A DNA stretch of 53,809 bases from Alphaproteobacteria bacterium. Lineage in GTDB: Bacteria; Pseudomonadota; Alphaproteobacteria; Sphingomonadales; SMXR01. The stretch is taken from positions 1 to 53,809 of the forward strand of contig DAOWAS010000002.1 in NCBI GenBank assembly GCA_030634465.1. The letters run 5' to 3'. Position 1 is the stretch's first letter, and the number at the start of each line of letters is the position of its first letter. Below the pieces are notes generated by a model, which was given only the letters and a program-made list of their open reading frames with translations, did no database searches and was not told where the DNA came from. This document shows, piece by piece, positions 7,792 through 39,657 of this stretch. Both the position numbers and the translations under genes were made by a program.

Positions 7792-10437
7792 CTATAGAAG
7801 GTTTGACTTTGTTATTCGATGAAATTCATCAAGGCTTTCTTTTAGGGTTTTCTTTCCTATTTTTATTTCAGGTAAAAGTTTGGTTATATTCATTTTCTTT
7901 TCTTTTTTGCTTAATGTTTGGCACCAGTTTGTCATTTTAATAAAGCCAATAACGCCAGAAGCTCCTGTTAAACGATGAATATACTCTTGGAATTGTTTGG
8001 CATCATTGTTTGTAATTGCCTGCTCCATTAAGCTAAGTGTATTTGTGCAATTATCCTCGTATGAGGTGAGCATTTTATTGAACTCATTTTCAGGTAACAG
8101 CTCGTTATATTCACTTAATATATCTAAATTTAGTAGCTTGGAAGTTGCTGTAGCACTGCGTGCTGGCGCTATAGTCTCGGTAATAATATGCCGATCAAAG
8201 TGATGGCTAATTAATTGGTTGAACTCTTTTTTGTCAAAGGGTTTCGGAATTGTGTCTAACATGCCGACAGAGCGGTAAACCTCTTTAGCATGGGCGGAAA
8301 GGTCTGCGGTAAAGGCAAAAATAAGCGGGATGTTTTTATTATCAGCAAAAATTTCTTTTATTCTTTTTGTGGTTTCAATGCCGTCCATTTCGGGCATGTG
8401 AATGTCCATTAAAACAATATCAAACTCATTATTAATAACTTTTGAAATTGTCTCCTCACCTGATGAAGCCGTATCAACCTCGTGATTATCTAAAGATAGA
8501 AGTTTTGCAATTGTAATGCGATTACTTTCAAAATCATCAACAAGTAAAATTTTAAGAGGCTTTATGTTTTCGCTAGGAAGGTTTGTATTTTCCATGGCCT
8601 GAGGTGAGCCTTCTTCAAGGGTTAGAATAACGGAAAAATCACTTCCCTTTCCCTTTGCGCTTTCAAGAACTATTTCCCCATCTAAGGCTTCAACCAACTG
8701 GTTGCAAATAGTAAGGCCTAGCCCGTTACCGCCATACTTGCGTGAGGTGCCGGTTTCCTCTTGTTTAAAGGCATTAAATATATTCTGCTGGTTTTCTGGC
8801 GAAATTCCAATGCCAGTATCTTTTACAGAAATGCAAAGGGGTGCTGTTTCATTATCCGCATTTTTATCAAGATAAAACGCCTCTAAGGTGACGGTGCCAG
8901 TAATGGTGAACTTTATTGCATTATCAAGCAGGTTGGTAATAATTTGCCTAATTAGAAATGGGTCGCTCATTAAAACTGGGGGCAAAGCATCAATATTTTT
9001 TACAAGTGCTATTTCTTTTTGAACCGCCTTGTCTTTCATCATATCGTAGATGTCATTCAACAGTTCAGTTGGGTCAAAGGCTGTTTTGTTTAGCTTAACT
9101 TCCTCGTTTTCATTTTTTGAAAAATCAAGAATGTCATTTAGTAGTTTTAATAGAAATTGACCTGAGCGGCTAAGGCGGTCTACTAGCTCTTTCTGAGTTT
9201 TGTTGGTTTTGGTGGCCTCTAAAAGCTGAGATGTACCTAGTATGGCAGAAAGTGGGGTTCTGATTTCGTGGCTGACCGTCGCAATGAACGCACTTTTGGC
9301 TTGGTTGGCAACTTCTGCTTCATTTAGAGCCTGACTTATGGCCTGCTCTGCTTTTCTTCTGCGTTTAATTTCTGATCTAAACCTAATAATAAAAATGGCT
9401 AATAAAATAGATGTTATGGATGCAAGAAGAGCCCCGCCCGTTAAATATTTTGTTTGTTCTTTTAGTTGTCCTAGCTCTCGCCCCAGTGGGTTTTGGTCAT
9501 AAATAAAACCACTCAAATCCATTTCTTTGGATAGTATTCCCAAACTAGCGTAGTAAGCTTGGGTTCTATCCCAGCGTTCATGACTGGTGAAGCCAATAGG
9601 GACAACCTCTGGCATAATAAGGGTTTCTGTTTCATTGGCTTCGTACAATAAGTGCTCACGAGATTTGGGCACATCATATTCCTGCAACATCAGGTCTACG
9701 GTTTCTTCTTTGTTGCTCATGGCATATTGCCAACCCTTAAGGCTTGCTTCTAAAAACGCGTTTACAAGCTCAGGGTTTTCGTCAATTTTGCTTTGTGATG
9801 TGAATAAGTTGTCGCCATAAAAATCTAGCCCACCCATAATTGGGCTGAAAACAGTGTAGGGGATATTGTCTTTTTGAAATAAATATGGTTCGTTTGTAGT
9901 GTATATGGTTATTGCTTCAATCTCACCATTTAATAGTTTTTCAGTTGAGAACTCATGCTCAATAAGATTTAGCTTACTTAGATCAACACCCTCAGCATAT
10001 AGATATGCATAAAGCTCGGTTGAGCCTTTTTCGATCATAATTTTACGAGTTGCAAGGTCGTGGATGTTTTGAACATTGCTTGACCCAAGGGACAAAAAAC
10101 CAACAGCCGAGTGTTGGAATATATTTGCCAATATAACAGGTTCGAACCCTTGTTCTTTAAGCAACAAAACATCAGAGGAACCAACGGCAAAGTCCGCATC
10201 TCCTGTCATTACGCTGGTTAGTGGGTCTATGCTTGTTCCAGCTTCTTTAATGGTAACCTTAAGCCCAGCATCACGATAATAGCCCATTTGTTGCGCAGCA
10301 TAATAGCCAGCAAATTGATATTGGTGCTTCCACTTTAATTGCAGGGTTATTTCGGCAATGTCGCCCTTAGCAAATGCTGAGCTGCAAAATAATAAACTAA
10401 CAACAATGATCAGTGATGATATTAACTTTTGGTACAT
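7792..10437 (-). CDS. Hybrid sensor histidine kinase: periplasmic NMT1/SsuA-like solute-binding domain, TM, HisKA, HATPase, REC, Hpt
   Basis: Signal peptide, then [28 protein letters not shown] (SBP-like). TM segment [21 protein letters not shown]-box [13 protein letters not shown] boxes [34 protein letters not shown]...[11 protein letters not shown]. Hpt [12 protein letters not shown]. Confidence 0.9.
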
Positions 10438-10677: not shown

Positions 10678-11406
10678 ATGAACAATATTGACCAAAAGAC
10701 TTTTGATGACGTTGCTGCCAAAATTTTGGTGGTTGAAGATGACCCCACAATACAATTGGCTTTGAAAAGTGTTCTAAAGACACAAAATTGCGATGTGGTT
10801 ATTTTTGATAGGGTTGACCAGGCATGGGAGTGGCTTTTACATAACACCCCAAACGTAGCTATTCTCGATATAAATTTACCGGATGACACAGGGTTTAATT
10901 TAGCCTGTAAAATTAGGAAAAGTTTTGAGTGCGGCATACTAATTTTAAGCACACGGTCTAGCACTAATGATATGCTCCATGCGCTTGAGCTTGGTGTTGA
11001 TCATTATATTACTAAGCCATTTTTGCCGCGAGAGCTTCTTCTTCGTATCAATAATTTGATTTTAAGAAACAGACAGTTGGTTTCTTTGAAATCTACTGTC
11101 ATAGACGAAGTGCAAGTTGGAAACTGGCAAGTTTCGTTTGAGAAGCAACATATAGAAAACCAAAAGGATCAGGTAAAGGGCTTAACAAAGCTAGAGGCGA
11201 ATGTTTTGTTATTGCTAACTTCATCCCCAGGCAAGCTTTTCAACAGAGAAACATTGGTTCACAAAATTCATAATGGTCAAAAAAGACCCACAAACAGAAC
11301 TGTTGATCTGTTGATTATGGGTTTACGCCGAAAGCTAGAAGAGCCAAAGGGCAACCCTAAGCATATTATTACCGTAGCTGGTGGCGGTTATTACTTTCAA
11401 GAGTAA
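10678..11406 (+). CDS. OmpR/PhoB-family response regulator (REC plus winged-helix)
   Basis: REC is KILVVEDDPTIQ...VAILDINLPDDTG. The C-terminus (LTKLEANVLLLLTSSPGKLFNRETL...RTVDLLIMGLRRKLE...GGGYYF) is a typical trans_reg_C. Confidence 0.9.
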   Translation: MNNIDQKTFDDVAAKILVVEDDPTIQLALKSVLKTQNCDVVIFDRVDQAWEWLLHNTPNVAILDINLPDDTGFNLACKIRKSFECGILILSTRSSTNDMLHALELGVDHYITKPFLPRELLLRINNLILRNRQLVSLKSTVIDEVQVGNWQVSFEKQHIENQKDQVKGLTKLEANVLLLLTSSPGKLFNRETLVHKIHNGQKRPTNRTVDLLIMGLRRKLEEPKGNPKHIITVAGGGYYFQE

Positions 11407-11589: not shown

Positions 11590-13281
11590 TTGTCTGTTAA
11601 GTTCAGCATTTCTTGCTTTAGTTCGTTGGTTGCGTTCAGTGTGCTCACATCTCCTTTTGTGCATTCGCAAGAGATTCCAAATAGCCTGCAACCAGATGTT
11701 ATTGATCGTCAGTTTGACCAGCTCCCTGATGCCACATCATCAAGCGCCATTTTAATTCCAACACCAAGCGAGCAATTGCCGCCTGATGTAGCAAGTGACA
11801 CAAGTCTTTTGCTTAATAGTGTGAGCTTGGAAGGTAATAACGAGTTTTCAACCGCTGAATTATCGCAATATTACCAAAGCTATATTGGTGAAAATGTAAG
11901 CCTTGCTACTTTTTTTGCCGTGGCTAATGCCATTACAGACCATTATGCGCAAGCAGGGTTTGCTCTGTCGCTAGCTTATGTGCCAGCGCAAGAAATTGAC
12001 AATGGTCATGTTAGACTTGTTGTGGTTGAGGGTTATGTTGGCGAAATTGATTATACGGGTGATGTGGATAAGGTAACAGATCGCCTGCGAAGTGTATTAA
12101 GCCCAATATTAAACGAACGCCCCTTAACAGTTGCAACAATGGAGAGGGCACTTCTGTTGGCTTCTCGTGAAACAGGTTTTGGTGTTGCTTCGTCTGTTGA
12201 TCGCTCAAGCATTGAGGTTGGTGCCTTGCGTTTAATCGTTGATGTGGAGAATGAACTGGTCAGCGGTGCAGTTGGTATTAACAACAGAGGCTCGCGCGCG
12301 TTGGGGGCGGTATTGGCGGACGTTTCAGTTTCGTTAAATGGTGCATTTGGTGTAGGTGAGCGAATAACAACAAGTCTAAACAAGTCTGTTGCTGATGATG
12401 AATTGTCATACTTCTCACTTGAGGCGGCCTTCCCAATTGGTGTCAACGGAACAGAGCTGTCAATTGGTTATGGCAAGTCAGATGCCAAGCCAGGGTTAGA
12501 AACATTAAGACTTCTTGAGTTTAATGCTGATAGTGAGACATATTTCGTGGAGCTATATCATCCGTTCATTCTTTCTAGAGCGAGAAACCTTAATGCTTCA
12601 GTTCGTTTTGAGGCCAGAGATTCTGAAGGTGAATTGCTGGATATTGTAAATACAAATGAGAAGCTACGCTCTTTACGTATTAGCGGCAGTTACGACATGG
12701 TTGATGATGCAGGCGCGGTAACGCTTGTTAAAACAACCTTTAGTCAGGGCATAAGTGCTTTTGGGGGTTCAGCAAATGATAATGAGTTTAAGGCACGTGA
12801 TCTTGCTCGGTATGATTACAGCAAAATTGATGTCCTGTTTTTCCAACTACGCCCAATTAATGAAACCCTAAGTGTTTATCTTAGCGGTGGAGCGCAGTAC
12901 GGCTTTAACCCCTTGGTTAGTTCAGAGCAGTGTGGCTTTGGCGGCGGCAGTTTTGGTCGTGCCTTTGATAGTTTCGAAATATCAGGCGACCATTGTGTTA
13001 ATGCCAGCGTAGAGCTTAGGTCCATGTACCCCAACCCTATGAAGGGTGTCGATTATATCCAGCCTTATGGTTTTGTTGACGGTGGCAAGGTGTGGCTAAA
13101 ACAAGCTGAAGGCGTTAGTTCAATTTCTCAAACTGGTTACAGCGCGGGTGCTGGTATGCGGGCAATGTTTTTGAACAACGTTAGTGGCTATGTTGAGGTG
13201 GCACTTCCAATAAATAGAGATGTTGAGCAGGCGGGCAATAGAAAAGCTCGTGTATTCGCTGGTTTGAGAGCAATTTTTTAG
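11590..13281 (+). CDS. TpsB (ShlB/FhaC/HecB-family) outer-membrane two-partner-secretion transporter
   Basis: 563 aa. TTG start with AGGAGAA 5 nt upstream. Signal peptide, a POTRA-like N-terminal region (VSLEGNNEFSTAEL..Y...IG), and a beta-barrel ending ...RVFAGLRAIF (aromatic C-terminus). It sits directly upstream of a TPS-domain exoprotein. Confidence 0.88.
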   Translation: MSVKFSISCFSSLVAFSVLTSPFVHSQEIPNSLQPDVIDRQFDQLPDATSSSAILIPTPSEQLPPDVASDTSLLLNSVSLEGNNEFSTAELSQYYQSYIGENVSLATFFAVANAITDHYAQAGFALSLAYVPAQEIDNGHVRLVVVEGYVGEIDYTGDVDKVTDRLRSVLSPILNERPLTVATMERALLLASRETGFGVASSVDRSSIEVGALRLIVDVENELVSGAVGINNRGSRALGAVLADVSVSLNGAFGVGERITTSLNKSVADDELSYFSLEAAFPIGVNGTELSIGYGKSDAKPGLETLRLLEFNADSETYFVELYHPFILSRARNLNASVRFEARDSEGELLDIVNTNEKLRSLRISGSYDMVDDAGAVTLVKTTFSQGISAFGGSANDNEFKARDLARYDYSKIDVLFFQLRPINETLSVYLSGGAQYGFNPLVSSEQCGFGGGSFGRAFDSFEISGDHCVNASVELRSMYPNPMKGVDYIQPYGFVDGGKVWLKQAEGVSSISQTGYSAGAGMRAMFLNNVSGYVEVALPINRDVEQAGNRKARVFAGLRAIF

Positions 13282-13299
13282 GTTCGGTAAGAGGTTATT

Positions 13300-16200
13300 A
13301 TGACACTTAGTAATAAAAAATATTTGAGATTATCAACAGGTTTGGGCCTTGTGATGGCACTAGCTGTTGTTACGGCAAATTATACCCAAGCTGCTGATAC
13401 CAAGCCAGAAGATGGTGAAGTTGTTCGTGGTGAAGCCACTATCGATTATAATGGCCTTAATACCACCATTAATCAAAACAGTCTTAAAGCCATTATTAAT
13501 TGGGACAGTTTTTCTGTTGGTGAGGCAGGCAGTGTTGTCTTCAACCAAACTGGTGCTGATGCCGTAACCCTTAACCGAGTTACTGGCGATGGTGTTTCTA
13601 ATATTTTGGGTTCAATTACCGCCCCTGGTCATGTGTTTTTAATTAACCGCAACGGTATTATTTTTGGTGAAGGCTCAACTATTAACGTTGGTGGTTTGGT
13701 TGCTTCAACATTCGACATTTCTGACAATAATTTTTGGTCAGGAAATTATTTGTTTGATAAGGCTGGGGTTGCCAGTGCTTCGGTTGAAAACTTTGGTAGC
13801 ATAACCATTAAAGAAGGTGGCTTGGCCGCATTTGTGGCGCCATATGTGGCAAACTCAGGCGTTATTAATGCCCGTCTTGGCTCAGTGTCATTGGGTGCTA
13901 GCGAAACAGGCTTTGCTTTAGATTTTTACGGTGACGGCTTAATTAAATTTGTGGTTCAAGAAGAAACCCAAGCGCGTCTTGGCCTTGGCGAAGACAGCTT
14001 AGTGGGTGTTGACGTGTCAGGCAGCATTTTGGCTGATGGTGGCATAGTTGCCATTACTGCTGATGTAGCGCGTGAGGTTGTATCTGACATTTTGACCATT
14101 GGCGGCGAAATTCGCGCCAATAGCATTGAGGAACGTGAAGGTAAAATTATCTTGTCAGGCCCTGACAATGGGCGCATTCGCATGAGCGAAGATGCCACGC
14201 TTGATGCAAGCGGTACTCACGGCGGTAGCATTGAGGTTGACGGCGACGTGGTGCTATTGGATGGCGTGTTAGATGCTAGCGGCGACGCGGCTGAATATAA
14301 TGACGCGCTTTCTTATCTATACGGTATTGGTGCGCAACAATCTATTATTGATACGGTTTTAGCACGTGCCAATGGCGGTAATATTAGCGTTAACTCCAAC
14401 TGGTTCAGCCTTGGTGGCGTGCTTGATGTTAGCGGTGCCAACGGTGGTAACATTGACATTAACGTAGGTGGTTTTTCAAACACTGGCGTTAGTTTGGCAA
14501 TTGGCCAGCAAGGCGGCGGTGGTAATATTAGCTTTGATGTTGATACCACAGTATTAGAATTTAACATGGCTTACACCGATGCCTCAGGTTTGGTTGATGG
14601 TGGCTCTATCAGCATGCTTGCTGGGCATCAAATAACATCATCTGGCACATATGTGGCAGATGGCTTGTTGGGTAACGGCGGTAATATTGATGTTTCAGCC
14701 AGCGTAACCAAATCGCTATCAGCACGCTACGGTGCGCGCGGTGGTATTGACGGTGGTCGCATTCGCTTTGGTGGCGAGTTCCAAGGCGGCAAAAACTTAG
14801 CAGAAGGCACAGACGAACTAGCCAATGCTGATGTTACAATTGTCAGTTCTGGTTCGCTTTTTGATGTAACTGGTGGCGGCACTGATGGTATTGGTGGCGG
14901 TGAAGTTATTATCTGGTCGGATGACAAAACCATTTTCCAAGGCTTGATAACAGGCGATGGTGCCTTTGTTGAGGTGTCGTCAGCAGGCGATTTAGAATTT
15001 GTGGGTGATGTTGAAATTGGCGATGGTGAGCTGTTATTAGACCCTAAAAACCTTATTATAACAGAACTATTTGGCACTCCATCGCTCTCTCTTATCCTTG
15101 GTTATCAATATTCTGACGTGCAGCAAGAGGCAGGCACATGGATTGAAAGCTTTGATAATTTTGGGGTGAGGGTAGCACTTGATGGCGACCATTTAGCTGT
15201 TGGTGCCATGATGGACAAGGGGGCTGATAACGCCACATCTAGTGCCGGTGCTGTTTATTTATTCACCTTCATAGCTGGCGATATGTCACAACCTGTTTTG
15301 TCAGCCATTATTGGTGCTGATTATACTGGCGGTAATAATATTGATAATACCTCCATTGAAGCTGGGGATACCTTTGGTTACGGCCTTGCACTAGAGGGCA
15401 ATAAATTGGCTGTTGGTGCAGCCAATGACGATGGCTTTGGTAATGGCGCCATATTCTCAGGTGCTGTATATTTATACACTTTCACAGATAATTTTAATTC
15501 CATTACTGAGGTTGCTGTAATCGGATCTGGTTATACTGTAGGTGAAAATGTAGATGTTGGTCCCCTTGACCTGGGGGATGCTTTTGGTACCAACATAGGG
15601 TTAAGCGGCAACCTTTTAGCCATTGGTGCATCAGGTGATGATGGTAACGCTAATGGATTAACGGATTCAGGTGCGGTTTATCTTTTTAGTTTTACTGGTG
15701 ACTTTACCTCCATAACTCAACAAGCAATAATTGGCTCAGGTTACGCTGGAACTAATGATCTCGACCATACTGGCCTTGAGGCAAGCGACAGGTTTGGCTC
15801 AGCAGTGGCATTGGACGGCACTCTTTTGGCAGCTGGCTCACCTAGTGATGATGGTAGTGGTAATGGTGTATCTGCTGCAGGTGCGGTTTATCTTTATAGT
15901 TTCACTGGCAACTTTACCTCTATAACCCAACAAGCAATTATTGGTGCTGATTATGCAGGCACTAATGATGTTGATAATACTGCACTTGAAATAAATGATT
16001 TTTTTGGTTCATCAATTGCTCTTGACGGTACACATTTAGCAATAAGTGCCACTGGTGATGATGGTAGCGGCAATGGTGTGTCTGGTTCAGGCGCTGTATA
16101 TCTTTATAGTTTTGCTGGCGATTTTACCTCTATAACTCAACAAGCAATAATTGGTGCTGATTATACAAGTGGTAACAATGTTGATAACCATCATTTAGAT

Positions 16201-19200
16201 GGTGATGCCTTTGGCAGGTCATTAGCTTTGGATGGCGGCCGTTTGGTTGTTGGCACTTTTAGTGATGATGGTGCAGATAATTCATCAACAGATTCTGGCG
16301 CAGTTTATCTTTATAGCTACACAGGTGATTTCACCAACATCACCCATGAAGATACTATTGGTTATGGCTATGCGACAGATATTTCTTTGGATGTTGATGA
16401 TTATTTTGGCAGAAGCTTGGCTTTGAGAGGCAGCCTGTTGGCTGTGGGTGCAAGTGGTGATGATGGCATTGGAAATGCCACAACTTATGCGGGAGCGGTT
16501 TATTTATTCACTTTTATCGGCAGTGATCTTACAAACCCAATTTTGTCTGGTATTATTGGGCAAGGTTATACAGGTGGTAATAATGTGGATAACACTGCGC
16601 TTGCTAGTGGTGATGTTTTTGGTGCTGCAGTTGCACTTGATGGAAACCATTTAGCTGTTGGTGCTACTGGTGATGATGGTAGTGGCAATGGTGTGCCTAC
16701 TTCAGGTGCTGTGTATTTGTATAGCTTTACTGATAACTTTAAAGCCATAACCCTAGAGGCAATTATAGGTGCTGATTACGCTGGCACAAATGATTTAGAT
16801 AACACTTCGCTCCAGCCTAGTGACCAGTTTGGGGTATCAGTTGCACTTGATGGCACCCATTTGGCCGTTGGTGCGTTTAGTGATGATGGTAGTGCAGATG
16901 ACGTGTTGACAGGTGGCGCAGTTTATTTATATAGCTTTACAGGTGATTTTACCTCAATAACCCAACAAGCTATCATTGGTTCTGACTATTCTGGTGGCAA
17001 CAATTTTGATGTTGCATCCATTGAAAGCAGTGATTATTTTGGTTCGTCGGTGGCATTAGATGGCACACTTTTGGCCGTGGGGGCGTGGAGAGATAGCGGT
17101 ATATACTCTAGTGCTTATGGTGCGGTCTATCTATTTAGTTTTACTGGTGATTTCACGGGCATCACCCAAGAAGCCATTATAGGGCAGGGCTATTCGGGTG
17201 GTAATAACGTTAATAATAATTGGTTAGGCGATCAAGACCAGTTTGGCTATTCAGTGGCGTTAGATGGCAACCTTTTGGCCGTAGGTGCTCCTTCAGATGA
17301 TGGTTACACTGGCGGGTGGAATAATGGTAAGGTTTATTTATACAGTTTTACAGGAAACTTCACATCTATAACACTTGAATCCCACGTTGGTTGGAATTTC
17401 ACAGGTACAAATGATGTTCATAATAGTAGCCTAGAATATAGTGACAAATTTGGCAGTGCAATTGCATTAGATGGCACCAACTTAGTTATTTCTGCCAAAG
17501 ATGATGATGGTGGCGATAACAGTGTTGAAAATTCTGGCGCAGTTTATCTTTATAGTTTTACTGGTAATTTCACTGATATTACATGGCAAGAAACCCTTGG
17601 CCATGGGCAAGAGATAAACTTTGACCTTGGTGTAGGTGATAGGTTTGGCAGTTCAGTAGCCTTGGATGGTAAGCATTTGGCTGTTGGTGTGTCTAGCGAT
17701 GATGGTGTTGGTGATGGAGTGCCCTCAGTAGGTGCAGTTTATTTATACACTTTTCTGGGTGATGATTTAAAGAACCCTATATTGTCAGCCATTATTGGTG
17801 ATGGTTACAGCGGTGGTAATAATATAGACAATACGTCACTTGGGTTTGCCGATATATTTGGTGCATCAGTTGCCCTCGAGGGTGATCTTTTAGCAGTTGG
17901 TGCAGTTGGAGATGACGGTAGCGCTGATGGTGTTACTGATGCAGGTGCTGTTTATCTATATAGTTTTACAGGAGATTTTAGCTATATAACCGAGCGTGCC
18001 ATAATAGGGTCTGGATACACAAATAGTGGAGATGTGGACAACACAGCACTCGGTGCGAGTGATTATTTTGGACGCTCAGTTGCACTTGATGGCTCACTTT
18101 TAGCAGTTGGCGCTGATGGTGATGATGGCGCTGCGGATGGAGTGTCAGATGCAGGTGCTTTGTATATTTATAGCTTTAGTGGGAATTTTGCATCATTAAA
18201 CCAAGAAATGGTAATTGGCTCTGGTTATTCTGGAGCCAATGCGGTTGATAACACCTCACTTGAAGCTGGTGACCAGTTTGGTTATTCAGTGGCTCTTGAT
18301 AGCCCACTGATAGCTGTAGGGGCCATCAGCGATGATGGTAGTTTTGATGATACACCTAATGCTGGTGCAGTTTATCTTTATAGCTATATTAATGACCTAA
18401 CCACCATTACCCAACGGGCGATTATTGGGGTCGATTATTCGGGTGGTAACAATATTGATAATACAGCGATACAATCCGCGGATAGGTTTGGCTATTCGGT
18501 GGCACTAGATGGCACGCATTTGGGCGTTGGTGCACCATTAGATGATGGATTTAATAATAATGTGTCTAATTCAGGATCGGTCTATCTTTATAGTTTCGCA
18601 GGTAGTTTCAACGCACTAAGTTTAGAGGCAACCATTGGTGCTGATTATACTGGCGGTAATAATGTTGACGAGACATTTGTTGAAGCTAATGATGAGTTCG
18701 GTAGATCTATATCTTTAGACGGAAATAATTTAGCTGTTGGTGCAATGGGTGATGACGGCAGTGATAATAGTCTTTTGACTATGGGCGCTGTTTATCTTTA
18801 TGAAAATGTGTTTGCACCTGTTACGGGAGCAACTGGTTGGAACTTTGCTGACGATACTGGTGCCACAAGTATAGTTGACGTTAATCAAATAACAGATATT
18901 CTTAATGCTGGCACCAATGTTACTCTGCAAGCATCAAACGACATTACACTTAATACGGACCTGATTGTAGCTAACCTTTCTGGCTATGGAGGTACACTAA
19001 CCCTGCAATCTGGTCGCAGTATTTTAATAAATGGTAATGTCACTACTGATCATGGCAGTTTGACATTTGTGGCAAATGATATTGCGGCAAATGGTGTTGT
19101 AAATGCCGACCGCGATGCAGGTGCCGCAGCAATTACAATGGCAAGTGGAACGTCTATTGATACTGGGACTGGTGCTTTTAAAGCTACTCTCTCTACAGGG

Positions 19201-21558
19201 GCGGGTAATACCAATTTAACATCAGGCGACATCACCCTAACCGATGTAACCTCTGAAACTATACTTGTTGAAAATTTGGGGGCATCTAACGGCGATGTAA
19301 TATTAAACGGTGTGTTATATGCAACAGAAGCAGCTGGCTTTACCACCCCACTTGTTGTGGCATCACTTGGTGGTAACTTTATAAACAACGTAGGTGCTGG
19401 TGCTTTGGTTGTTGAAGACACTGGCGAAGATTACAATCGTTGGCTTGTTTACAGTCAAAACCCAACAGACAACACCAATGGTGGTTTGGATGGTATTCAG
19501 TGGTATAACACAACGTATAATAGCGCTGCGCCAACCACGATTAATGATTTCACCGATAGTAATCGCTTTGTTTATACTCAAACAGCTACATTGTTAATAA
19601 CCGCAGACGATGTGAGCCGTGATTATGGTTTGGCTAACCCCACCTTTACCACCACAATAACTGGTTTTGTAAATGGTGAAACAGATGCGATAATGTCTGG
19701 CTCAGCGGCAACACCAACCACAACAGCAACTGCCACTACTAATGTGGGTACAGCTGTTATCACACCCGGGTATGGTAGCCTTAGTGACCGTTATAATTAC
19801 CAAGCGTCGCTGGTTAATGGCACACTAACAATCGACCCTGCCACTTTAACAGTAACAGCAGATGATGCCTCTCGTACTTATGGCGAGGCTAACCCAACAT
19901 TAACCTCAAGCATAACTGGTTTTATGAATGGGGAAACATCTTCTGTATTATCAGGTGCGGCTGGAACCCCATCAACAACAGCTACAGCCACAACTAATGC
20001 AGGCACAACGGCTATAACTATTGATACAGGTACACTTTCTGCAACTAACTATGTGTTCGTTGCAGCAGATGGCACCCTTACAATAAATAAAGCCACGCTA
20101 ACTGTTACGGTTGGTGATGAAACACGAGTTTATGGCGATGCCACCGAGATTTTTAATGTGAATGTTACAGGTTTTGTTAATGGCGAAGATATATCTGTAG
20201 CTTCTAACTTAACACTTTCATCCAATGCAACAGCAACGTCAGATGTAGGCACATATGCTTTAAGTGGTTCAGATGCTACCGCCGACAATTATACATTTAC
20301 CTATGTTGATGGTGCCTTAACCATAACCAAAGCACGGTTAACAATTGTTGGTGCAGACGCGACCTCCACTTACGGAACAGTTCGCACTGATTATGATTAT
20401 AGTGTTACTGGGTTCTTAAATGGTGATGATGCTTCTGTAATAACTGGCGCGGTAATATTTGATTTAGATCCAAATTATAGCGCAACGTCGGCAGCAGGAT
20501 CACAGTTTGAAATAGATACAAATGCTTTAGGTCTAGCATCAACCAATTACACCTTCACTGGGGTTGATTTGATATTAACCGTTGAGAAAGCACCATTGAC
20601 CGTAACCTTAGGCGACGATAGTAAAACATACGATGGTTTGGCCTACAGCGGTGGTAACGGTATAACTTACACAGGCTTAGCTAATGGCGAAACCGAGGCA
20701 GTGCTTGGTGATGTGCTATCATTTGGTGGCACAGCGCAAGGTTCTGTTAATGCGGGTACATATACAATTACCCTTGAGGGCTTAACCTCAACCAACTACA
20801 CCATAACCTTTGTTGATGGTGCCTTAACCACCGACAAGGCGGCTTTAAGCGTTACAGCTAATGATGATAGCAAAATTGCTGATGGCGTTGCCTATAGCGG
20901 TGGTAACGGTGTTGTTTACGCAGGCTTTGTAAACAGCGAAACTGATACTGTATTGGGTGGAGATGTAACATATAGCGGCACCTCACAAGGTGCAGTTGAC
21001 GCAGACACATATGTAATTACACCTGAGGGTCAAACCTCTGATAATTACACCATAACCTATGTTGATGGCACCTTAACCATTGAAGCTGGTGCTGGCGGCG
21101 ATGGCGGTGACGGTGGTTCAGACGACCCTGCTGATCCTGTTAATGACCCTGTGCCACCTGCGCCTCCTGTAAGCGACCCACCTGTTGATACTTCAACAGA
21201 TAGTTTGCCAGATAACTCACCTGCACCAACAGCTCAGGTTGTTAGCTCTGGCAGTGTTTTGGTTGTGGCTAACGCTGTTACAGAAGAAATAACTATCACC
21301 TCAAATGTGATAAGTGTTGAGCTTCCAGACGGTATATTTGACCATGAGGACGACACAGCTACATATACAGTAACAGCGACATTGCCAAATGGTGAGCCGT
21401 TACCTGAATGGTTGTCATATGATGCCGAGACCAATACATTAACTGGTGTTGTTCCTGAGGGCTTCTCAGGTGAGATTGACGTATTGCTAACCGCTGAAGA
21501 TGCACAGCAAAATACAGCACAGACAGTTGTTAAAATTAATGTAACCTCAGAAGGTTGA
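13300..21558 (+). CDS. Giant TpsA exoprotein (2752 aa): TPS/haemagglutination-activity domain, beta-helix, 18 FG-GAP-type blades, beta-helix, 6 MBG-type repeats, Pro-rich linker, cadherin/Ig-like C-terminal domain
   Basis: Sec signal peptide. TPS motifs are INQNSLKAIINWDSFSVGEAGSVVFNQ...LNRVTGDGVSNILGSI...FLINRNGIIFG. The blade consensus FG.SVALDG..LAVGA..DDG.G.G....GAVYLYSF occurs 18 times. The MBG-like unit (TLTVTADDASRTYGEANP...NY.F...DGTLTI) occurs 6 times. The tail is TATLPNGEPLPEWLSYDAETNTLTGVVPEGFSGEIDV. Confidence 0.9.
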   Translation: MTLSNKKYLRLSTGLGLVMALAVVTANYTQAADTKPEDGEVVRGEATIDYNGLNTTINQNSLKAIINWDSFSVGEAGSVVFNQTGADAVTLNRVTGDGVSNILGSITAPGHVFLINRNGIIFGEGSTINVGGLVASTFDISDNNFWSGNYLFDKAGVASASVENFGSITIKEGGLAAFVAPYVANSGVINARLGSVSLGASETGFALDFYGDGLIKFVVQEETQARLGLGEDSLVGVDVSGSILADGGIVAITADVAREVVSDILTIGGEIRANSIEEREGKIILSGPDNGRIRMSEDATLDASGTHGGSIEVDGDVVLLDGVLDASGDAAEYNDALSYLYGIGAQQSIIDTVLARANGGNISVNSNWFSLGGVLDVSGANGGNIDINVGGFSNTGVSLAIGQQGGGGNISFDVDTTVLEFNMAYTDASGLVDGGSISMLAGHQITSSGTYVADGLLGNGGNIDVSASVTKSLSARYGARGGIDGGRIRFGGEFQGGKNLAEGTDELANADVTIVSSGSLFDVTGGGTDGIGGGEVIIWSDDKTIFQGLITGDGAFVEVSSAGDLEFVGDVEIGDGELLLDPKNLIITELFGTPSLSLILGYQYSDVQQEAGTWIESFDNFGVRVALDGDHLAVGAMMDKGADNATSSAGAVYLFTFIAGDMSQPVLSAIIGADYTGGNNIDNTSIEAGDTFGYGLALEGNKLAVGAANDDGFGNGAIFSGAVYLYTFTDNFNSITEVAVIGSGYTVGENVDVGPLDLGDAFGTNIGLSGNLLAIGASGDDGNANGLTDSGAVYLFSFTGDFTSITQQAIIGSGYAGTNDLDHTGLEASDRFGSAVALDGTLLAAGSPSDDGSGNGVSAAGAVYLYSFTGNFTSITQQAIIGADYAGTNDVDNTALEINDFFGSSIALDGTHLAISATGDDGSGNGVSGSGAVYLYSFAGDFTSITQQAIIGADYTSGNNVDNHHLDGDAFGRSLALDGGRLVVGTFSDDGADNSSTDSGAVYLYSYTGDFTNITHEDTIGYGYATDISLDVDDYFGRSLALRGSLLAVGASGDDGIGNATTYAGAVYLFTFIGSDLTNPILSGIIGQGYTGGNNVDNTALASGDVFGAAVALDGNHLAVGATGDDGSGNGVPTSGAVYLYSFTDNFKAITLEAIIGADYAGTNDLDNTSLQPSDQFGVSVALDGTHLAVGAFSDDGSADDVLTGGAVYLYSFTGDFTSITQQAIIGSDYSGGNNFDVASIESSDYFGSSVALDGTLLAVGAWRDSGIYSSAYGAVYLFSFTGDFTGITQEAIIGQGYSGGNNVNNNWLGDQDQFGYSVALDGNLLAVGAPSDDGYTGGWNNGKVYLYSFTGNFTSITLESHVGWNFTGTNDVHNSSLEYSDKFGSAIALDGTNLVISAKDDDGGDNSVENSGAVYLYSFTGNFTDITWQETLGHGQEINFDLGVGDRFGSSVALDGKHLAVGVSSDDGVGDGVPSVGAVYLYTFLGDDLKNPILSAIIGDGYSGGNNIDNTSLGFADIFGASVALEGDLLAVGAVGDDGSADGVTDAGAVYLYSFTGDFSYITERAIIGSGYTNSGDVDNTALGASDYFGRSVALDGSLLAVGADGDDGAADGVSDAGALYIYSFSGNFASLNQEMVIGSGYSGANAVDNTSLEAGDQFGYSVALDSPLIAVGAISDDGSFDDTPNAGAVYLYSYINDLTTITQRAIIGVDYSGGNNIDNTAIQSADRFGYSVALDGTHLGVGAPLDDGFNNNVSNSGSVYLYSFAGSFNALSLEATIGADYTGGNNVDETFVEANDEFGRSISLDGNNLAVGAMGDDGSDNSLLTMGAVYLYENVFAPVTGATGWNFADDTGATSIVDVNQITDILNAGTNVTLQASNDITLNTDLIVANLSGYGGTLTLQSGRSILINGNVTTDHGSLTFVANDIAANGVVNADRDAGAAAITMASGTSIDTGTGAFKATLSTGAGNTNLTSGDITLTDVTSETILVENLGASNGDVILNGVLYATEAAGFTTPLVVASLGGNFINNVGAGALVVEDTGEDYNRWLVYSQNPTDNTNGGLDGIQWYNTTYNSAAPTTINDFTDSNRFVYTQTATLLITADDVSRDYGLANPTFTTTITGFVNGETDAIMSGSAATPTTTATATTNVGTAVITPGYGSLSDRYNYQASLVNGTLTIDPATLTVTADDASRTYGEANPTLTSSITGFMNGETSSVLSGAAGTPSTTATATTNAGTTAITIDTGTLSATNYVFVAADGTLTINKATLTVTVGDETRVYGDATEIFNVNVTGFVNGEDISVASNLTLSSNATATSDVGTYALSGSDATADNYTFTYVDGALTITKARLTIVGADATSTYGTVRTDYDYSVTGFLNGDDASVITGAVIFDLDPNYSATSAAGSQFEIDTNALGLASTNYTFTGVDLILTVEKAPLTVTLGDDSKTYDGLAYSGGNGITYTGLANGETEAVLGDVLSFGGTAQGSVNAGTYTITLEGLTSTNYTITFVDGALTTDKAALSVTANDDSKIADGVAYSGGNGVVYAGFVNSETDTVLGGDVTYSGTSQGAVDADTYVITPEGQTSDNYTITYVDGTLTIEAGAGGDGGDGGSDDPADPVNDPVPPAPPVSDPPVDTSTDSLPDNSPAPTAQVVSSGSVLVVANAVTEEITITSNVISVELPDGIFDHEDDTATYTVTATLPNGEPLPEWLSYDAETNTLTGVVPEGFSGEIDVLLTAEDAQQNTAQTVVKINVTSEG
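15100..18804 (+). repeat. In-frame array of 18 FG-GAP-type units (~64-70 codons each) with a 6-unit higher-order period
   Basis: I counted 18 (A/K/S)(V/L)Y(L/I)(Y/F) cores. Variant short-linker blades start at nt 15100, 16360 and 17599. Neighbouring units share long near-identical DNA: 15913-15954 vs 16123-16164 is 40/42 identical. Confidence 0.85.
19585..21084 (+). repeat. Six tandem MBG-type (YG-containing) domain repeats, ~83 codons each
   Basis: Each unit opens A(T/A/P/R)L(T/S)(V/I)T..D.S(R/K).YG (YDG or ADG in the last two units) and closes NY.(F/I).(Y/F)VDG.LT(I/T). Confidence 0.7.
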
Positions 21559-21583: not shown

Positions 21584-22099
21584 ATGAGACATGCCGTTTT
21601 ATTGGGTCTAGCTTTGAGTTTTTACCCAACATTCAGTGCTAATGCACAAGAAAGTACAAGCTACACTTATGGTGACTGGAAAGTTACATGTGTTGAACGT
21701 GAAAATGCGTTGCCATGTGAAATGACACAAAGCTTAATCGACAGTACATCTGGTCAAACTGTAACACATTTTTCACTAGCTTATTCACCCGTTGATGAAG
21801 CTTATGCCATACAAATATCAGTACCCCTAGGCGTTAAGCTAGAGGGCGGCATGGTTATAAAAGCAGGGGAAACAGTTGTTGAGGGCATACGCTTCTCTCG
21901 TTGTTTGCCAGGCGGTTGCTTAATTGAAGCAAAACTGGAAGACCCATTGTTAGGAGCCATGTCAGCTGGTGGTGAGGCCGCAATTGCAGTGGTTGATGCA
22001 TCAGGGCAGGCAGTTTCGTTGCCATACTCACTAAACGGCTTCGCTGATGCTAAAGCACAACTGGTGAAAGAGACCACCACCCGCATGCCTCAGAACTAA
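21584..22099 (+). CDS. Invasion-associated locus B (IalB)-family periplasmic protein
   Basis: 171 aa. Signal peptide ...FSANAQE. YGDWKVTCVE...LPCEMTQSL...FSLAY...V.EGIRFSRCLPGGCLIEA is the IalB pattern. It starts 25 nt after the tpsA stop, with an AAGGAA SD. Confidence 0.75.
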   Translation: MRHAVLLGLALSFYPTFSANAQESTSYTYGDWKVTCVERENALPCEMTQSLIDSTSGQTVTHFSLAYSPVDEAYAIQISVPLGVKLEGGMVIKAGETVVEGIRFSRCLPGGCLIEAKLEDPLLGAMSAGGEAAIAVVDASGQAVSLPYSLNGFADAKAQLVKETTTRMPQN

Positions 22100-22434: not shown

Positions 22435-22461
22435 CCAAACAAAAACCCGCCAATGGCGGGC
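22435..22461 (-). terminator. Rho-independent terminator of tRNA-Arg
   Basis: The minus strand reads GCCCGCC-ATT-GGCGGG followed by TTTTTGTTTGG, starting 8 nt after the tRNA 3' end. Confidence 0.75.
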
Positions 22462-22468
22462 TTGTGTT

Positions 22469-22545
22469 TGGTGATCCCGACAGGATTTGAACCTGTGGCC
22501 TCAAGATTAGGAATCTTGCGCTCTATCCAACTGAGCTACGGGACC
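22469..22545 (-). tRNA. tRNA-Arg (anticodon CCT), CCA encoded
   Basis: 77 nt: GGTCCCG TA GCTC AGTTGGATA GAGC G CAAGA TTCCTAA TCTTG AGGCC ACAGG TTCAAAT CCTGT CGGGATC A CCA. All four stems pair (one G-T in the acceptor stem). The anticodon loop TT-CCT-AA gives CCT. Confidence 0.93.
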
Positions 22546-37316: not shown

Positions 37317-37457
37317 ATGAATAAAGTAATTATGGTTGTTCTGATAGCTGGCGTTGTAAGCGTGCTAGCGGGATTTGTTTTTCTTCTTACATGGGACATT
37401 CCAGCCCCTTCTGAACAAGTGGAGCGTGTGTTGCCAGATGATGAACTTCCAAAGTAA
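37317..37457 (+). CDS. Unlisted 46-codon single-TM membrane ORF
   Basis: MNKVIMVVLIAGVVSVLAGFVFLLTWDIPAPSEQVERVLPDDELPK. AAGG lies 9 nt upstream. The 3' end overlaps the ATGATG start of the next gene by 20 nt in another frame. It is below the ORF-track length cut-off. Confidence 0.45.
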   Translation: MNKVIMVVLIAGVVSVLAGFVFLLTWDIPAPSEQVERVLPDDELPK

Positions 37458-39657
37458 ATATTTTTCCATTGGAGTTTTGGGTGTGTTTGGACTTTTTTTA
37501 AGTTCTGCACCCCTCGCACTTGCCCAATCAGGCCTTGAGGTTCTACCAGAACTTGGAGTTCAAGAGCTTGATTTGAATAATCAAGCTTCTGATGTGCCTG
37601 ATGCTTCAGGTGAGTTCAGGCTTCCCATTGCCCAAGAAGACCCAAGGTTTGCCCCATTTTTTGGCGTGCCTGATGTGCCAAGCATTGACCGCGACCAAGC
37701 TACGGGAAATCCGCTTATAATTACACCTGGGCCGTACCTAACCCCTGGCACTGTTGAGGGTGACCCATTTCGTGAAGAGCAGTTGGAAGTTCCTGTGGGA
37801 ATTCCAGTGCAAACTTTCTATGAAGATGGAAATGTGTTCGCAACCGAGGAAGTGTCCGACCAAGATGTGCTTGATGTTGAGGGTGGTGCTTCATTTGAGC
37901 TAGGTATTGCCATGGGGCAGTTGGCTGAAATAGACCCTGCCACATTAGGCCTGTTTGAAGAGCGCACTGGCGGTTTGCCATACAATATGTGGCATGGCTC
38001 AACCTACGACAGGGTGGTGGATATTATTTCTAACCTGCCCGTTGCCACCCCTTCACCAACCATAAATAAATTGTCCGAACTGATTTTGCTTTCAGCCGCG
38101 GCGGTGCCAGCACGCCAAAGTGAAGCATTGTCAACTGCGGAAGCGGGACCAACTGTGGATGCGGGCAAAAAAGCGGTTAATGGTTTGCCTGAGCAGTCTG
38201 AACAGATTGAACAGGGTGAGCAAACAGAGATTGATGCTAGCGAAAGTGAAGTTTTCAACAATGACGCGTTGCTTTTAGCGCGGTTGATGCGCCTTTCTGA
38301 GACAGGCAAAATGTCGGTTCTTATGAATTTTATGAACGCCTTGCCGCAAAATATTTCCATTGCTGAATTGTACGAGTTACGGGTTAACACCGCCTTGTTA
38401 GAGGGTGATATATTATCAGCATGCAACATGGCGCAAGATGCCAGAGCAGAGGAAGGTGCCACATATTGGCTTAAAATACTGACATATTGCCGCGCTGTTG
38501 ATGGCGATAGGGCGGGTGTTGGTTTTAACATTTCATTATTGCAAGAAACAAACGAAGCGCCATTATTTTTCACATCGTTAATTGAAGATATTTTACGTCT
38601 TGCCGAGGGGCGCGCTAGCGGTGGCTCTGGTGTGCATTCGCTAAGCCCAAGTGATGTAAATGCCTTAAGTATTGCTATGGTCAACACCGCTAAAGGCGAG
38701 TTGCCGTTATATTTATTAGAAGATATGCCACGGTTGTATTTAGGTTCAATGACCAGACGTGCCGACCTTTCCATAGATTTCAGGGCAGAGGTAAGCGAGC
38801 TTGCCGCTCTTTATGGGGTGATGGAGGGGCGGGTGTTCTCAGAAGTGTTAGAGGCTATGGACTTTACCGACGGCGAGCGTGACAGTATTTTTCTATTGGC
38901 AAACACTGACCTTGGTGCGCGGGTTGATGGCTTGTTAATTAATAGCGCCATGTTTGAAGGCGACAGGTTGCGCAAGGCCGAGTTAATATCAACAGCGTTT
39001 GAGCGCGGCCTTCGTGAAAAGCTGTACCCTGCGCTGTCATACCCATTGTTGGATGTGGTTAAAACCATGACCCCCACACCAGATCTGGCGTTTTTCGCCC
39101 ATGATGCGGGGCGAATTGCGCTTTATTCGGGTGACGGTGTAACCGCAAAAAAATGGTATGACTTGGTGCTTGGCATGGCCTCTGCTGAAAATTTTGAAGC
39201 TAGCAGGTCGTTGGTTTCATTGTGGCCTTTAATGTTGATGCACGACCAAGCGGGGGCAATTCCGGCCAATGAACAAATTATAACTTTGTGGCGGCAAAGC
39301 TTAAACCAGTTGCCAGCAGGCGAACAACAACAACGCACAGAACTGCTGTATGCTCTGCTAGGTGTGTTCCAATATGACGTTCCAGACCTGATGCTTGGTG
39401 GCTCATTTGCAAGTGCGCCTGAGGTGAGTTCAAGCAAAATGCCACCTCACGGAGTGTGGCGCGCATTTCTACATTCAGCTCGTGATGGCCGTGTTGGTGA
39501 AACCCTTGCCCTTGGGCTTTTGGTTTTGGGCGATGGCTGGGTTGATGAGGTTAATATATCTGTCTTAACCAGTGTGTTGTCTGTTCTAAACGCTATGGGT
39601 ATGGAAACTGAGGCTCGGGCAATTGCCATTGAAGCAATGGTTGGAAGTGGTTTTTAA
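37438..39657 (+). CDS. Secreted hypothetical protein (~739 aa)
   Basis: The signal peptide MMNFQSKYFSIGVLGVFGLFLSSAPLALAQ begins at ATG 37438. The upstream part of the ORF-track call (from 37375) has no signal-peptide logic. No recognisable catalytic motif. Confidence 0.7.
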   Translation: MMNFQSKYFSIGVLGVFGLFLSSAPLALAQSGLEVLPELGVQELDLNNQASDVPDASGEFRLPIAQEDPRFAPFFGVPDVPSIDRDQATGNPLIITPGPYLTPGTVEGDPFREEQLEVPVGIPVQTFYEDGNVFATEEVSDQDVLDVEGGASFELGIAMGQLAEIDPATLGLFEERTGGLPYNMWHGSTYDRVVDIISNLPVATPSPTINKLSELILLSAAAVPARQSEALSTAEAGPTVDAGKKAVNGLPEQSEQIEQGEQTEIDASESEVFNNDALLLARLMRLSETGKMSVLMNFMNALPQNISIAELYELRVNTALLEGDILSACNMAQDARAEEGATYWLKILTYCRAVDGDRAGVGFNISLLQETNEAPLFFTSLIEDILRLAEGRASGGSGVHSLSPSDVNALSIAMVNTAKGELPLYLLEDMPRLYLGSMTRRADLSIDFRAEVSELAALYGVMEGRVFSEVLEAMDFTDGERDSIFLLANTDLGARVDGLLINSAMFEGDRLRKAELISTAFERGLREKLYPALSYPLLDVVKTMTPTPDLAFFAHDAGRIALYSGDGVTAKKWYDLVLGMASAENFEASRSLVSLWPLMLMHDQAGAIPANEQIITLWRQSLNQLPAGEQQQRTELLYALLGVFQYDVPDLMLGGSFASAPEVSSSKMPPHGVWRAFLHSARDGRVGETLALGLLVLGDGWVDEVNISVLTSVLSVLNAMGMETEARAIAIEAMVGSGF

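Follow-up and report, generated by a model that had tools for sequence, protein, structure and literature searches.

A predicted two-partner secretion system whose giant passenger carries FG-GAP units in modules of six

Positions 1 to 53,809 of contig DAOWAS010000002.1 (assembly GCA_030634465.1), a stretch of 53,809 nucleotides from an alphaproteobacterium which we call the window, carry two adjoining genes, tpsB and tpsA. Judged by their sequences, these genes constitute a two-partner (type Vb) secretion system, in which export of the TpsA passenger is predicted to depend on TpsB. The body of the passenger contains 18 FG-GAP units grouped in modules of six predicted blades, three of which are found in the window TpsA, a grouping that the first-pass annotation of this DNA had missed. 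We estimate at roughly 70% the probability that the product exported by this system is a giant surface protein of modular build, probably an adhesin, and that the repeat array of this protein is a cassette growing and shrinking by whole modules. The simplest reading is that the six-blade propeller is at once the structural and the evolutionary building block, present in three copies in the window TpsA and in 1 to 13 copies in the family.

The tpsB-tpsA pair and its domains

The tpsB gene (11590..13281, plus strand) lies upstream of tpsA (13300..21558, plus strand) and is separated from it by 18 nucleotides; the first-pass annotation had reported an FhaC/ShlB-like gene followed at this distance by an open reading frame (ORF) of 2752 residues, and the two ORFs are exactly as it described. 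Their ribosome-binding sites look good, with AGGAG standing 7 nucleotides before the TTG start of tpsB and AAGAGG before the ATG start of tpsA. The 563-residue TpsB has the features of an Omp85-family outer-membrane transporter, namely a signal peptide, POTRA domains and a ShlB/FhaC-type barrel. Pfam matched POTRA_2 at residues 75-148 (67 bits) and ShlB at residues 218-521 (73 bits), giving a separate match for one of the two expected POTRA domains, and the protein aligned over nearly its full length (residues 36-541) with CdiB (PDB entry 6wim, E 1.8e-18).

The passenger, whose secretion is predicted and whose make-up was established from the ORF, its translation and Pfam, has all its features on the plus strand. 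It opens with a Sec signal peptide (13300..13392, residues 1-31; predicted cleavage TQA/AD), read from the translation, and continues with a two-partner secretion (TPS) domain of the EtpA/HMW1/HxuA type (13402..14181, residues 35-294), both of which had been noticed at the first pass. The TPS domain was recognised by Pfam TPS (103 bits, cut-off 33.5) and by the NCBIfam model TIGR01901 (75.9 bits, cut-off 29.1), and its sequence matches in the PDB included EtpA (8cpk, E 3.6e-42), HMW1 (2odl, 1.7e-27) and HxuA (4i84, 3e-21). A Gly-rich, beta-helix-like extension (14182..15060, residues 295-587) leads from there to the FG-GAP region and ends in the conserved landmark LLLDPKN (residue 579). Its last part, residues 470-587, was modelled mostly as short beta-strands, with block values of the predicted local distance difference test (pLDDT) mostly of 76-89, falling to 52-58 at residues 490-509. 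The Gly-rich stretch ahead of the repeats had been put at about 560 residues; its beta-helix-like character stands, and the whole region ahead of the repeats, counted from the N-terminus, measures 587.

Downstream of the FG-GAP units, which occupy residues 588-1834, a second spacer (18802..19590, residues 1835-2097) carries the motifs LQAxNDIT (residue 1874) and RWLVYS (residue 2047) and is conserved in homologues. It gave no match in Pfam or among PDB sequences, and its fold may be beta-helical. Six MBG_2 domains of the YGX type come next (19591..21087, residues 2098-2596), matched by Pfam in six stretches (252 bits), so that the six MBG-type repeats noted earlier are confirmed with a start at residue 2098. 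An acidic, Pro-rich linker (21088..21300, residues 2597-2667), read from the translation, then joins them to a C-terminal He_PIG domain (21301..21546, residues 2668-2749; Pfam 36 bits, cut-off 24). The tail had been called cadherin/Ig-like; it is putatively Ig-like, and the family to which Pfam assigns it is He_PIG. Searched against PDB sequences, the C-terminal 918 residues gave a chance-level PDZ match only. No haemagglutinin-repeat family (Pfam Fil_haemagg) was matched anywhere in TpsA at E ≤ 0.01, in agreement with the first-pass view that the body does not consist of filamentous haemagglutinin repeats. The protein is very acidic, the net charge of its repeat region being -139, and its 2752 residues include no cysteine, as would be expected of a protein that crosses the periplasm unfolded.

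Six-blade modules and the size of the array

The 18 FG-GAP-type units counted at the first pass were recovered in full. Pfam matched FG-GAP_2 in 18 stretches (426 bits, E 1e-130), and the anchor G[AKS][VL]Y[LI][YF] marked 18 units over residues 588-1834, with a period of 65-71 residues and the consensus sFtgdFt.it..aiIG.gY.ggnnvdnt.l...D.FG.svALDG..LAVGA..DDG..ngv...GAVYLY. We assign units 1-6 to a predicted module 1 (15061..16314, residues 588-1005) on the basis of Pfam, the unit anchors and a first AlphaFold2 (AF2) model, units 7-12 to a module 2 (16315..17553, residues 1006-1418) from a second AF2 model and Foldseek, and units 13-18 to a module 3 (17554..18801, residues 1419-1834) from Pfam and the unit pattern. 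Units 7 and 13, at 65 residues, are short; the long units 2, 8 and 14 have 71 residues each and a signature in common. Module 3 shows the pattern of modules 1 and 2, in which a short unit comes first and a long one second. Units six places apart are also slightly more alike than other pairs (55% versus 51% identity, P 0.012).

Model 1 covered residues 470-1425 and was computed with 30 homologues in the input. It showed four beta-strands per unit at a mean pLDDT of 87.2, and its predicted template modelling score (pTM) of 0.56 reflects well-defined domains whose relative orientation is loosely defined. Confidence dropped in the lead-in (residues 589-613) and at the junction of units 6 and 7. 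Foldseek matched this model with integrin alpha propellers (E about 1e-16), at template modelling (TM) scores of 0.2/0.42 that are low because the model spans several domains of loose mutual orientation. Model 2, restricted to exactly one block of six units (residues 1003-1440, units 7-12), reached a pLDDT of 91.6 and a pTM of 0.93 and contained six sets of four strands. Its best PDB matches in Foldseek were the propellers of integrins alpha5, alpha4, alphaV and alphaIIb (E 3e-16, probability 1.00, TMq 0.57-0.61, root-mean-square deviation 5-6 Å, 16-19% identity); by sequence, the FG-GAP region had no match in the PDB. The models thus predict that the units are four-stranded FG-GAP blades, six of which form one compact domain, and they suggest that this domain is a closed ring.

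The number of units in other proteins follows a six-fold rule, which we examined in three overlapping samples with a hidden Markov model built from the 18 window units. Truncated or divergent proteins apart, the 120 best database homologues carry 6, 12, 18, 24, 30, 36 or 42 units. Of the 34 complete ORFs with regular spacing at genome loci, 32 have counts divisible by six: 6 (3 ORFs), 12 (19), 18 (8), 24 (1) and 42 (1). Lastly, we took one module as the phmmer query and searched 1.84 billion representatives exhaustively, which gave 20,003 matches at E ≤ 1e-3, of which 429 reached E ≤ 1e-30; among the best 150 matches, 65 of the 69 complete TPS-bearing proteins with a regular array conform to the rule, with 6 (15 proteins), 12 (28), 18 (10), 24 (5), 30, 36 (2), 42 (2), 48 and 78 units. 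The largest relative found, P0121, has 6723 residues and 78 FG-GAP_2 units, that is 13 six-blade modules, after its TPS domain.

The surroundings of the array tell the same story. In homologues it always sits between the conserved landmarks LLDPKN and LQAxNDIT, and the distance between these grows in steps of about 430-450 residues. Several seeming exceptions, with 14-17 units, show the spacing of 18 units, and in one relative devoid of FG-GAP units the landmarks are 47 residues apart. At the DNA level, Tandem Repeats Finder detected a single array in the window tpsA (15634-16164, period 210, 2.5 copies, 77% matches), corresponding to units 4-6. The units are therefore of old date and have diverged since. 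Within module 1, this array and the 73% protein identity between units 4 and 5 point to a duplication or gene conversion of later date.

In the search for relatives, each GTDB species was represented by one genome; the alignment used ran from the end of the N-terminal helix through units 1-12. It replaced an earlier one that reached into unit 13, in which this unit was misaligned to the post-repeat helix of 12-unit homologues. At least 526 loci were found in these species-representative genomes, spread over Alpha-, Beta- and Gammaproteobacteria and Nitrospinaceae. The carriers include Sphingomonadales, Rhizobiaceae, Parvularculaceae, Puniceispirillaceae, marine single-cell genomes, Nitrosomonadales, Rhodocyclales, Comamonadaceae, Woeseiaceae, Cellvibrionaceae and Legionellales. 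The nearest TpsA in these genomes, from an Emcibacteraceae metagenome-assembled genome (MAG), is 52% identical, and no sequence more than 54% identical was present in the collections searched. For the best 80 of the at least 526 loci we clustered all adjoining ORFs; TpsB was the only widely conserved neighbour, occurring at 55 of the 80 and with a single exception on the same strand; plain tblastn found it at 46. Many of the loci with no adjoining TpsB end at contig edges.

Predicted export, function and genomic setting

According to the mechanism that we propose, TpsA would cross the inner membrane by Sec and be kept unfolded in the periplasm, where the POTRA domains of TpsB would bind its N-terminal TPS domain. 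The unfolded chain would then be threaded through the TpsB barrel and fold outside the cell. The short beta-helix nucleated by the TPS domain (residues 35-587) would form first, and each propeller would fold once its approximately 415 residues are outside, every six-blade module of this length acting as an autonomous folding unit. From its N-terminus the exported protein would display the beta-helix, three six-bladed propellers (residues 588-1834), the beta-helical spacer, the six MBG_2 domains, the acidic linker and the He_PIG domain; the MBG_2 domains would form a stalk and the Ig-like He_PIG domain its tip. Both the passage through TpsB and the folding after export are what we infer from this architecture, as is an adhesive or lectin-like, ligand-binding role of the propellers. 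For any particular ligand our confidence is much lower than for the overall picture.

A role in ligand binding could also be exercised by a capture protein or an enzyme, secreted or held at the surface, whose propellers would bind or cleave a soluble polysaccharide or protein. FG-GAP-like propellers are at work in polysaccharide lyases and in lectins of fungi, HxuA, which captures haemopexin, is an example of a TpsA that serves to capture a ligand, and the extremely acidic propeller region (net -139) would suit cation-mediated glycan binding. Nevertheless, no catalytic family was matched in Pfam or NCBIfam, no uptake receptor gene is conserved beside the locus among the 80 related loci, and a variable number of modules of the same type (1-13), together with stalk-like MBG and Ig domains, is typical of adhesins. 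We therefore regard this alternative as fairly unlikely.

A third function to be considered is toxin delivery by a CdiA-like or other protein, with the propellers as receptor-binding region and the toxin at the C-terminus. CdiB is indeed the best solved relative of TpsB, and CdiA is itself a very large TpsA with a central receptor-binding region (2017 TPS review). However, the TPS domain groups with those of the adhesin-type EtpA, HMW1 and HxuA. Moreover, the passenger contains no VENN, ELYN, QLYN or related pre-toxin motif, it ends in a He_PIG Ig-like domain, and the gene downstream encodes a predicted secreted protein of the IalB family and not a small cytoplasmic immunity protein. These last three observations largely refute the CdiA reading for the window TpsA, and we find it hardly credible.

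The downstream gene in question (ialB family, 21584..22099, plus strand) starts 26 nucleotides after tpsA; it matches IalB (PF06776, E 9e-26), and its signal peptide was read from the sequence. IalB homologues adjoin tpsA or tpsB in 10 of the 80 related loci, downstream of tpsA in five (L005, L006, L008, L029 and L067) and between tpsB and tpsA in the other five (L020, L040, L041, L045 and L053), the arrangement seen in Sphingosinicella. Its product may be an accessory factor of uncertain operon membership; the full text searched contained no paper that mentions both IalB and two-partner secretion.

Several points weigh against a surface adhesin built of exported propellers. Its expression, export and binding are deduced from sequence and models. 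The title of Guedin et al. 1998, a study listed among the references of the 2017 TPS review, declares a globular conformation to be incompatible with secretion through FhaC; taken at the level of this title, their result means that the propellers must stay unfolded until they are outside, as we assume. Ring closure and its mode rest on the pTM, the strand count and TM scores of about 0.6 to propellers that have seven blades, not on a direct view, and the N-terminal lead-in (residues 589-613) is modelled with low confidence. AF2 modelling covered residues 470-1440, which take in the end of the first beta-helix-like extension and modules 1 and 2. Finally, a minority of closely related FG-GAP_2 arrays have no recognisable TPS domain: P0144, P0150, P0217 and P0225 carry 12, 18 or 21 units, with Calx-beta, Big_9/cadherin-like or DUF5649 domains. 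Some of these may be wrongly started gene calls; as they stand, they indicate that the module is not exclusive to the two-partner pathway.

From the structural points one could argue that the native protein has no six-blade rings, its units forming an open super-helical array or rings of another blade number, or, further, that the gene is unexpressed or not exported by the adjoining TpsB. With repeat proteins, AF2 may force a propeller to close, and pLDDT falls at the junction of units 6 and 7 as well as in the lead-in. On the other hand, the pTM was 0.93 for exactly six units, and the near-universal multiple-of-six rule, over hundreds of proteins, is hard to explain without a six-unit closure. 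The intact ORF, its good ribosome-binding site and the conserved linkage to tpsB likewise speak against a gene that is silent or whose product stays inside. Taken together, we judge such a protein to be quite improbable, and keep to the reading of a passenger with three six-blade propellers exported through TpsB.

A wider proposal, which we put forward tentatively and would not yet bet on, is that "propeller TpsA" proteins are a distinct and widespread class, in which strings of 1-13 autonomous, integrin-like propellers of six blades are exported by a two-partner transporter. Successive ring closure outside the cell, and not the stacking of a beta-helix, would then serve as the folding ratchet for secretion, and by gaining or losing whole modules environmental bacteria would adjust how far a lectin-like adhesin reaches and what valency it has.

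If the exported-propeller reading is true, the folding problem that the TpsB pathway has to deal with is of quite another kind in a large and phylogenetically broad set of TpsA proteins, for the bulk of the passenger would consist of globular six-blade propellers. No ring could close before about 415 residues are outside the cell, which sets its folding apart from the stacking of a beta-helix, and propeller TpsA proteins would offer a natural system for asking what drives this energy-independent secretion. An integrin-like recognition module may furthermore be in common use at the cell surface of bacteria from marine, soil and groundwater habitats, perhaps for attachment, aggregation or glycan binding, and the multiple-of-six rule is a simple, testable prediction on both structure and evolution. 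The folding question and the clean six-fold modularity should mainly interest specialists in secretion and adhesins.

The remaining surroundings of the pair can be described briefly. An OmpR-type response regulator gene (10678-11406, plus strand) lies directly upstream of tpsB, preceded by the gene of a hybrid histidine kinase whose periplasmic domain is NMT1/THI5-like (7792-10437, minus strand). The response regulator was found beside none of the 80 related loci and the kinase beside five, as weak matches; since these genes are not conserved there, a regulatory link cannot be claimed. The promoter and terminator scan gave no usable signal inside the tpsBA operon. Downstream, a G+C-rich hairpin (22443-22463) has a terminator score on both strands and probably ends both the tpsBA-ialB transcript and that of the tRNA-Arg (CCT) gene (22469-22545, minus strand). 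On the minus strand of 13300-21558 we counted 47 sigma-70-like promoter matches, versus 27.9 ± 5.2 in shuffled sequences; many of them are spaced at roughly unit length over the repeats, and they are probably a by-product of the repeated codon pattern and not real promoters.

Further along the window, a 760-residue ORF with a TTG start (37375-39657, plus strand) stands among the housekeeping genes CobT, NrdA and SecA. It had no NCBIfam match at E ≤ 1e-5, and an ORF of 256 residues overlaps it on the opposite strand. The SecA of the window is 65% identical at best to its counterparts, which belong to an alphaproteobacterial MAG, Roseibium and Sneathiella. By this measure the host, already taken for an alphaproteobacterium at the first pass, appears to be one with no close relative among the GTDB representatives.

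Comparison with known systems

Field reviews present TpsA proteins as beta-helical fibres whose folding advances at the cell surface while they are being secreted. The 2017 TPS review states that all of them are predicted to form such folds, and the 2019 passenger review does not mention propellers. We found no description of an FG-GAP or propeller TpsA in the two-partner literature available in the full text searched, a provisional result as most subscription-journal papers lay outside it. The first-pass annotation had not recognised this architecture among characterised TpsA proteins, and within that literature it was right; the at least 526 loci show that the combination is common, and none of it was found to be characterised.

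The window TpsA shares with the EtpA, HMW1 and HxuA types its signal peptide, its N-terminal TPS domain, an adjoining Omp85-family TpsB with POTRA domains and its very large size. In contrast to theirs, its body is not a continuous beta-helix, since 1247 residues of FG-GAP_2 are followed by MBG_2 and He_PIG domains. The HMW1 and EtpA systems also differ in their HMW1C/EtpC-like glycosyltransferase; no gene of this kind is conserved at the 80 loci related to the window tpsA, and none flanks it in the window.

Another export pathway is used by the Tc-toxin TcB/SpvB-type proteins, which have a bacterial integrin-like propeller with six blades. Theirs is a single propeller, which may resemble those of the window TpsA; propellers of this type were absent from the top 50 Foldseek matches of model 2. 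In the 2012 survey of polymorphic toxins, integrin-like propellers mark the TcdB/TcaC pathway, and FilH repeats are all that is given for type V secretion systems.

With the integrin alpha propeller, which provided the best structural matches of the modelled module, the window TpsA has in common its four-stranded FG-GAP blades. The integrin ring is single and has seven blades, whereas TpsA has six per module and three modules in tandem, with units of 70 residues, in a bacterial protein predicted to be secreted. In integrins, the loops that join strands 1 and 2 have the form DxDxDGxxD and bind Ca2+. The corresponding loop of TpsA is a short LDG turn, in the context ALDG..L, with no such Ca2+ loop; the D.D.DG motif does not occur in TpsA, whose 2752 residues hold one loose match (residue 781), and an integrin-type Ca2+ site was therefore rejected. 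The DDG.G.G loops for which Ca2+ dependence had been thought probable at the first pass lie between strands 2 and 3 and contain no DxDxDG motif, which leaves that suggestion a speculation. The strong negative charge makes cation binding possible on this general ground rather than on any specific one.

The closest parallels are the TpsA proteins of Blastomonas, Sphingosinicella, Sinorhizobium medicae and the Emcibacteraceae MAG, in which a TPS domain, FG-GAP_2 units in a multiple of six and MBG_2/YDG domains follow one another as in the window TpsA, at 40-52% identity. The number of modules and the C-terminal domains vary among them, and these entries carry generic names only, the relatives as a whole being listed as "filamentous hemagglutinin family protein", "MBG domain-containing protein" or "YDG domain-containing". 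In conclusion, the architecture is already visible in databases, and we provisionally regard these proteins and the window TpsA as members of an uncharacterised but widespread class within a known secretion principle.

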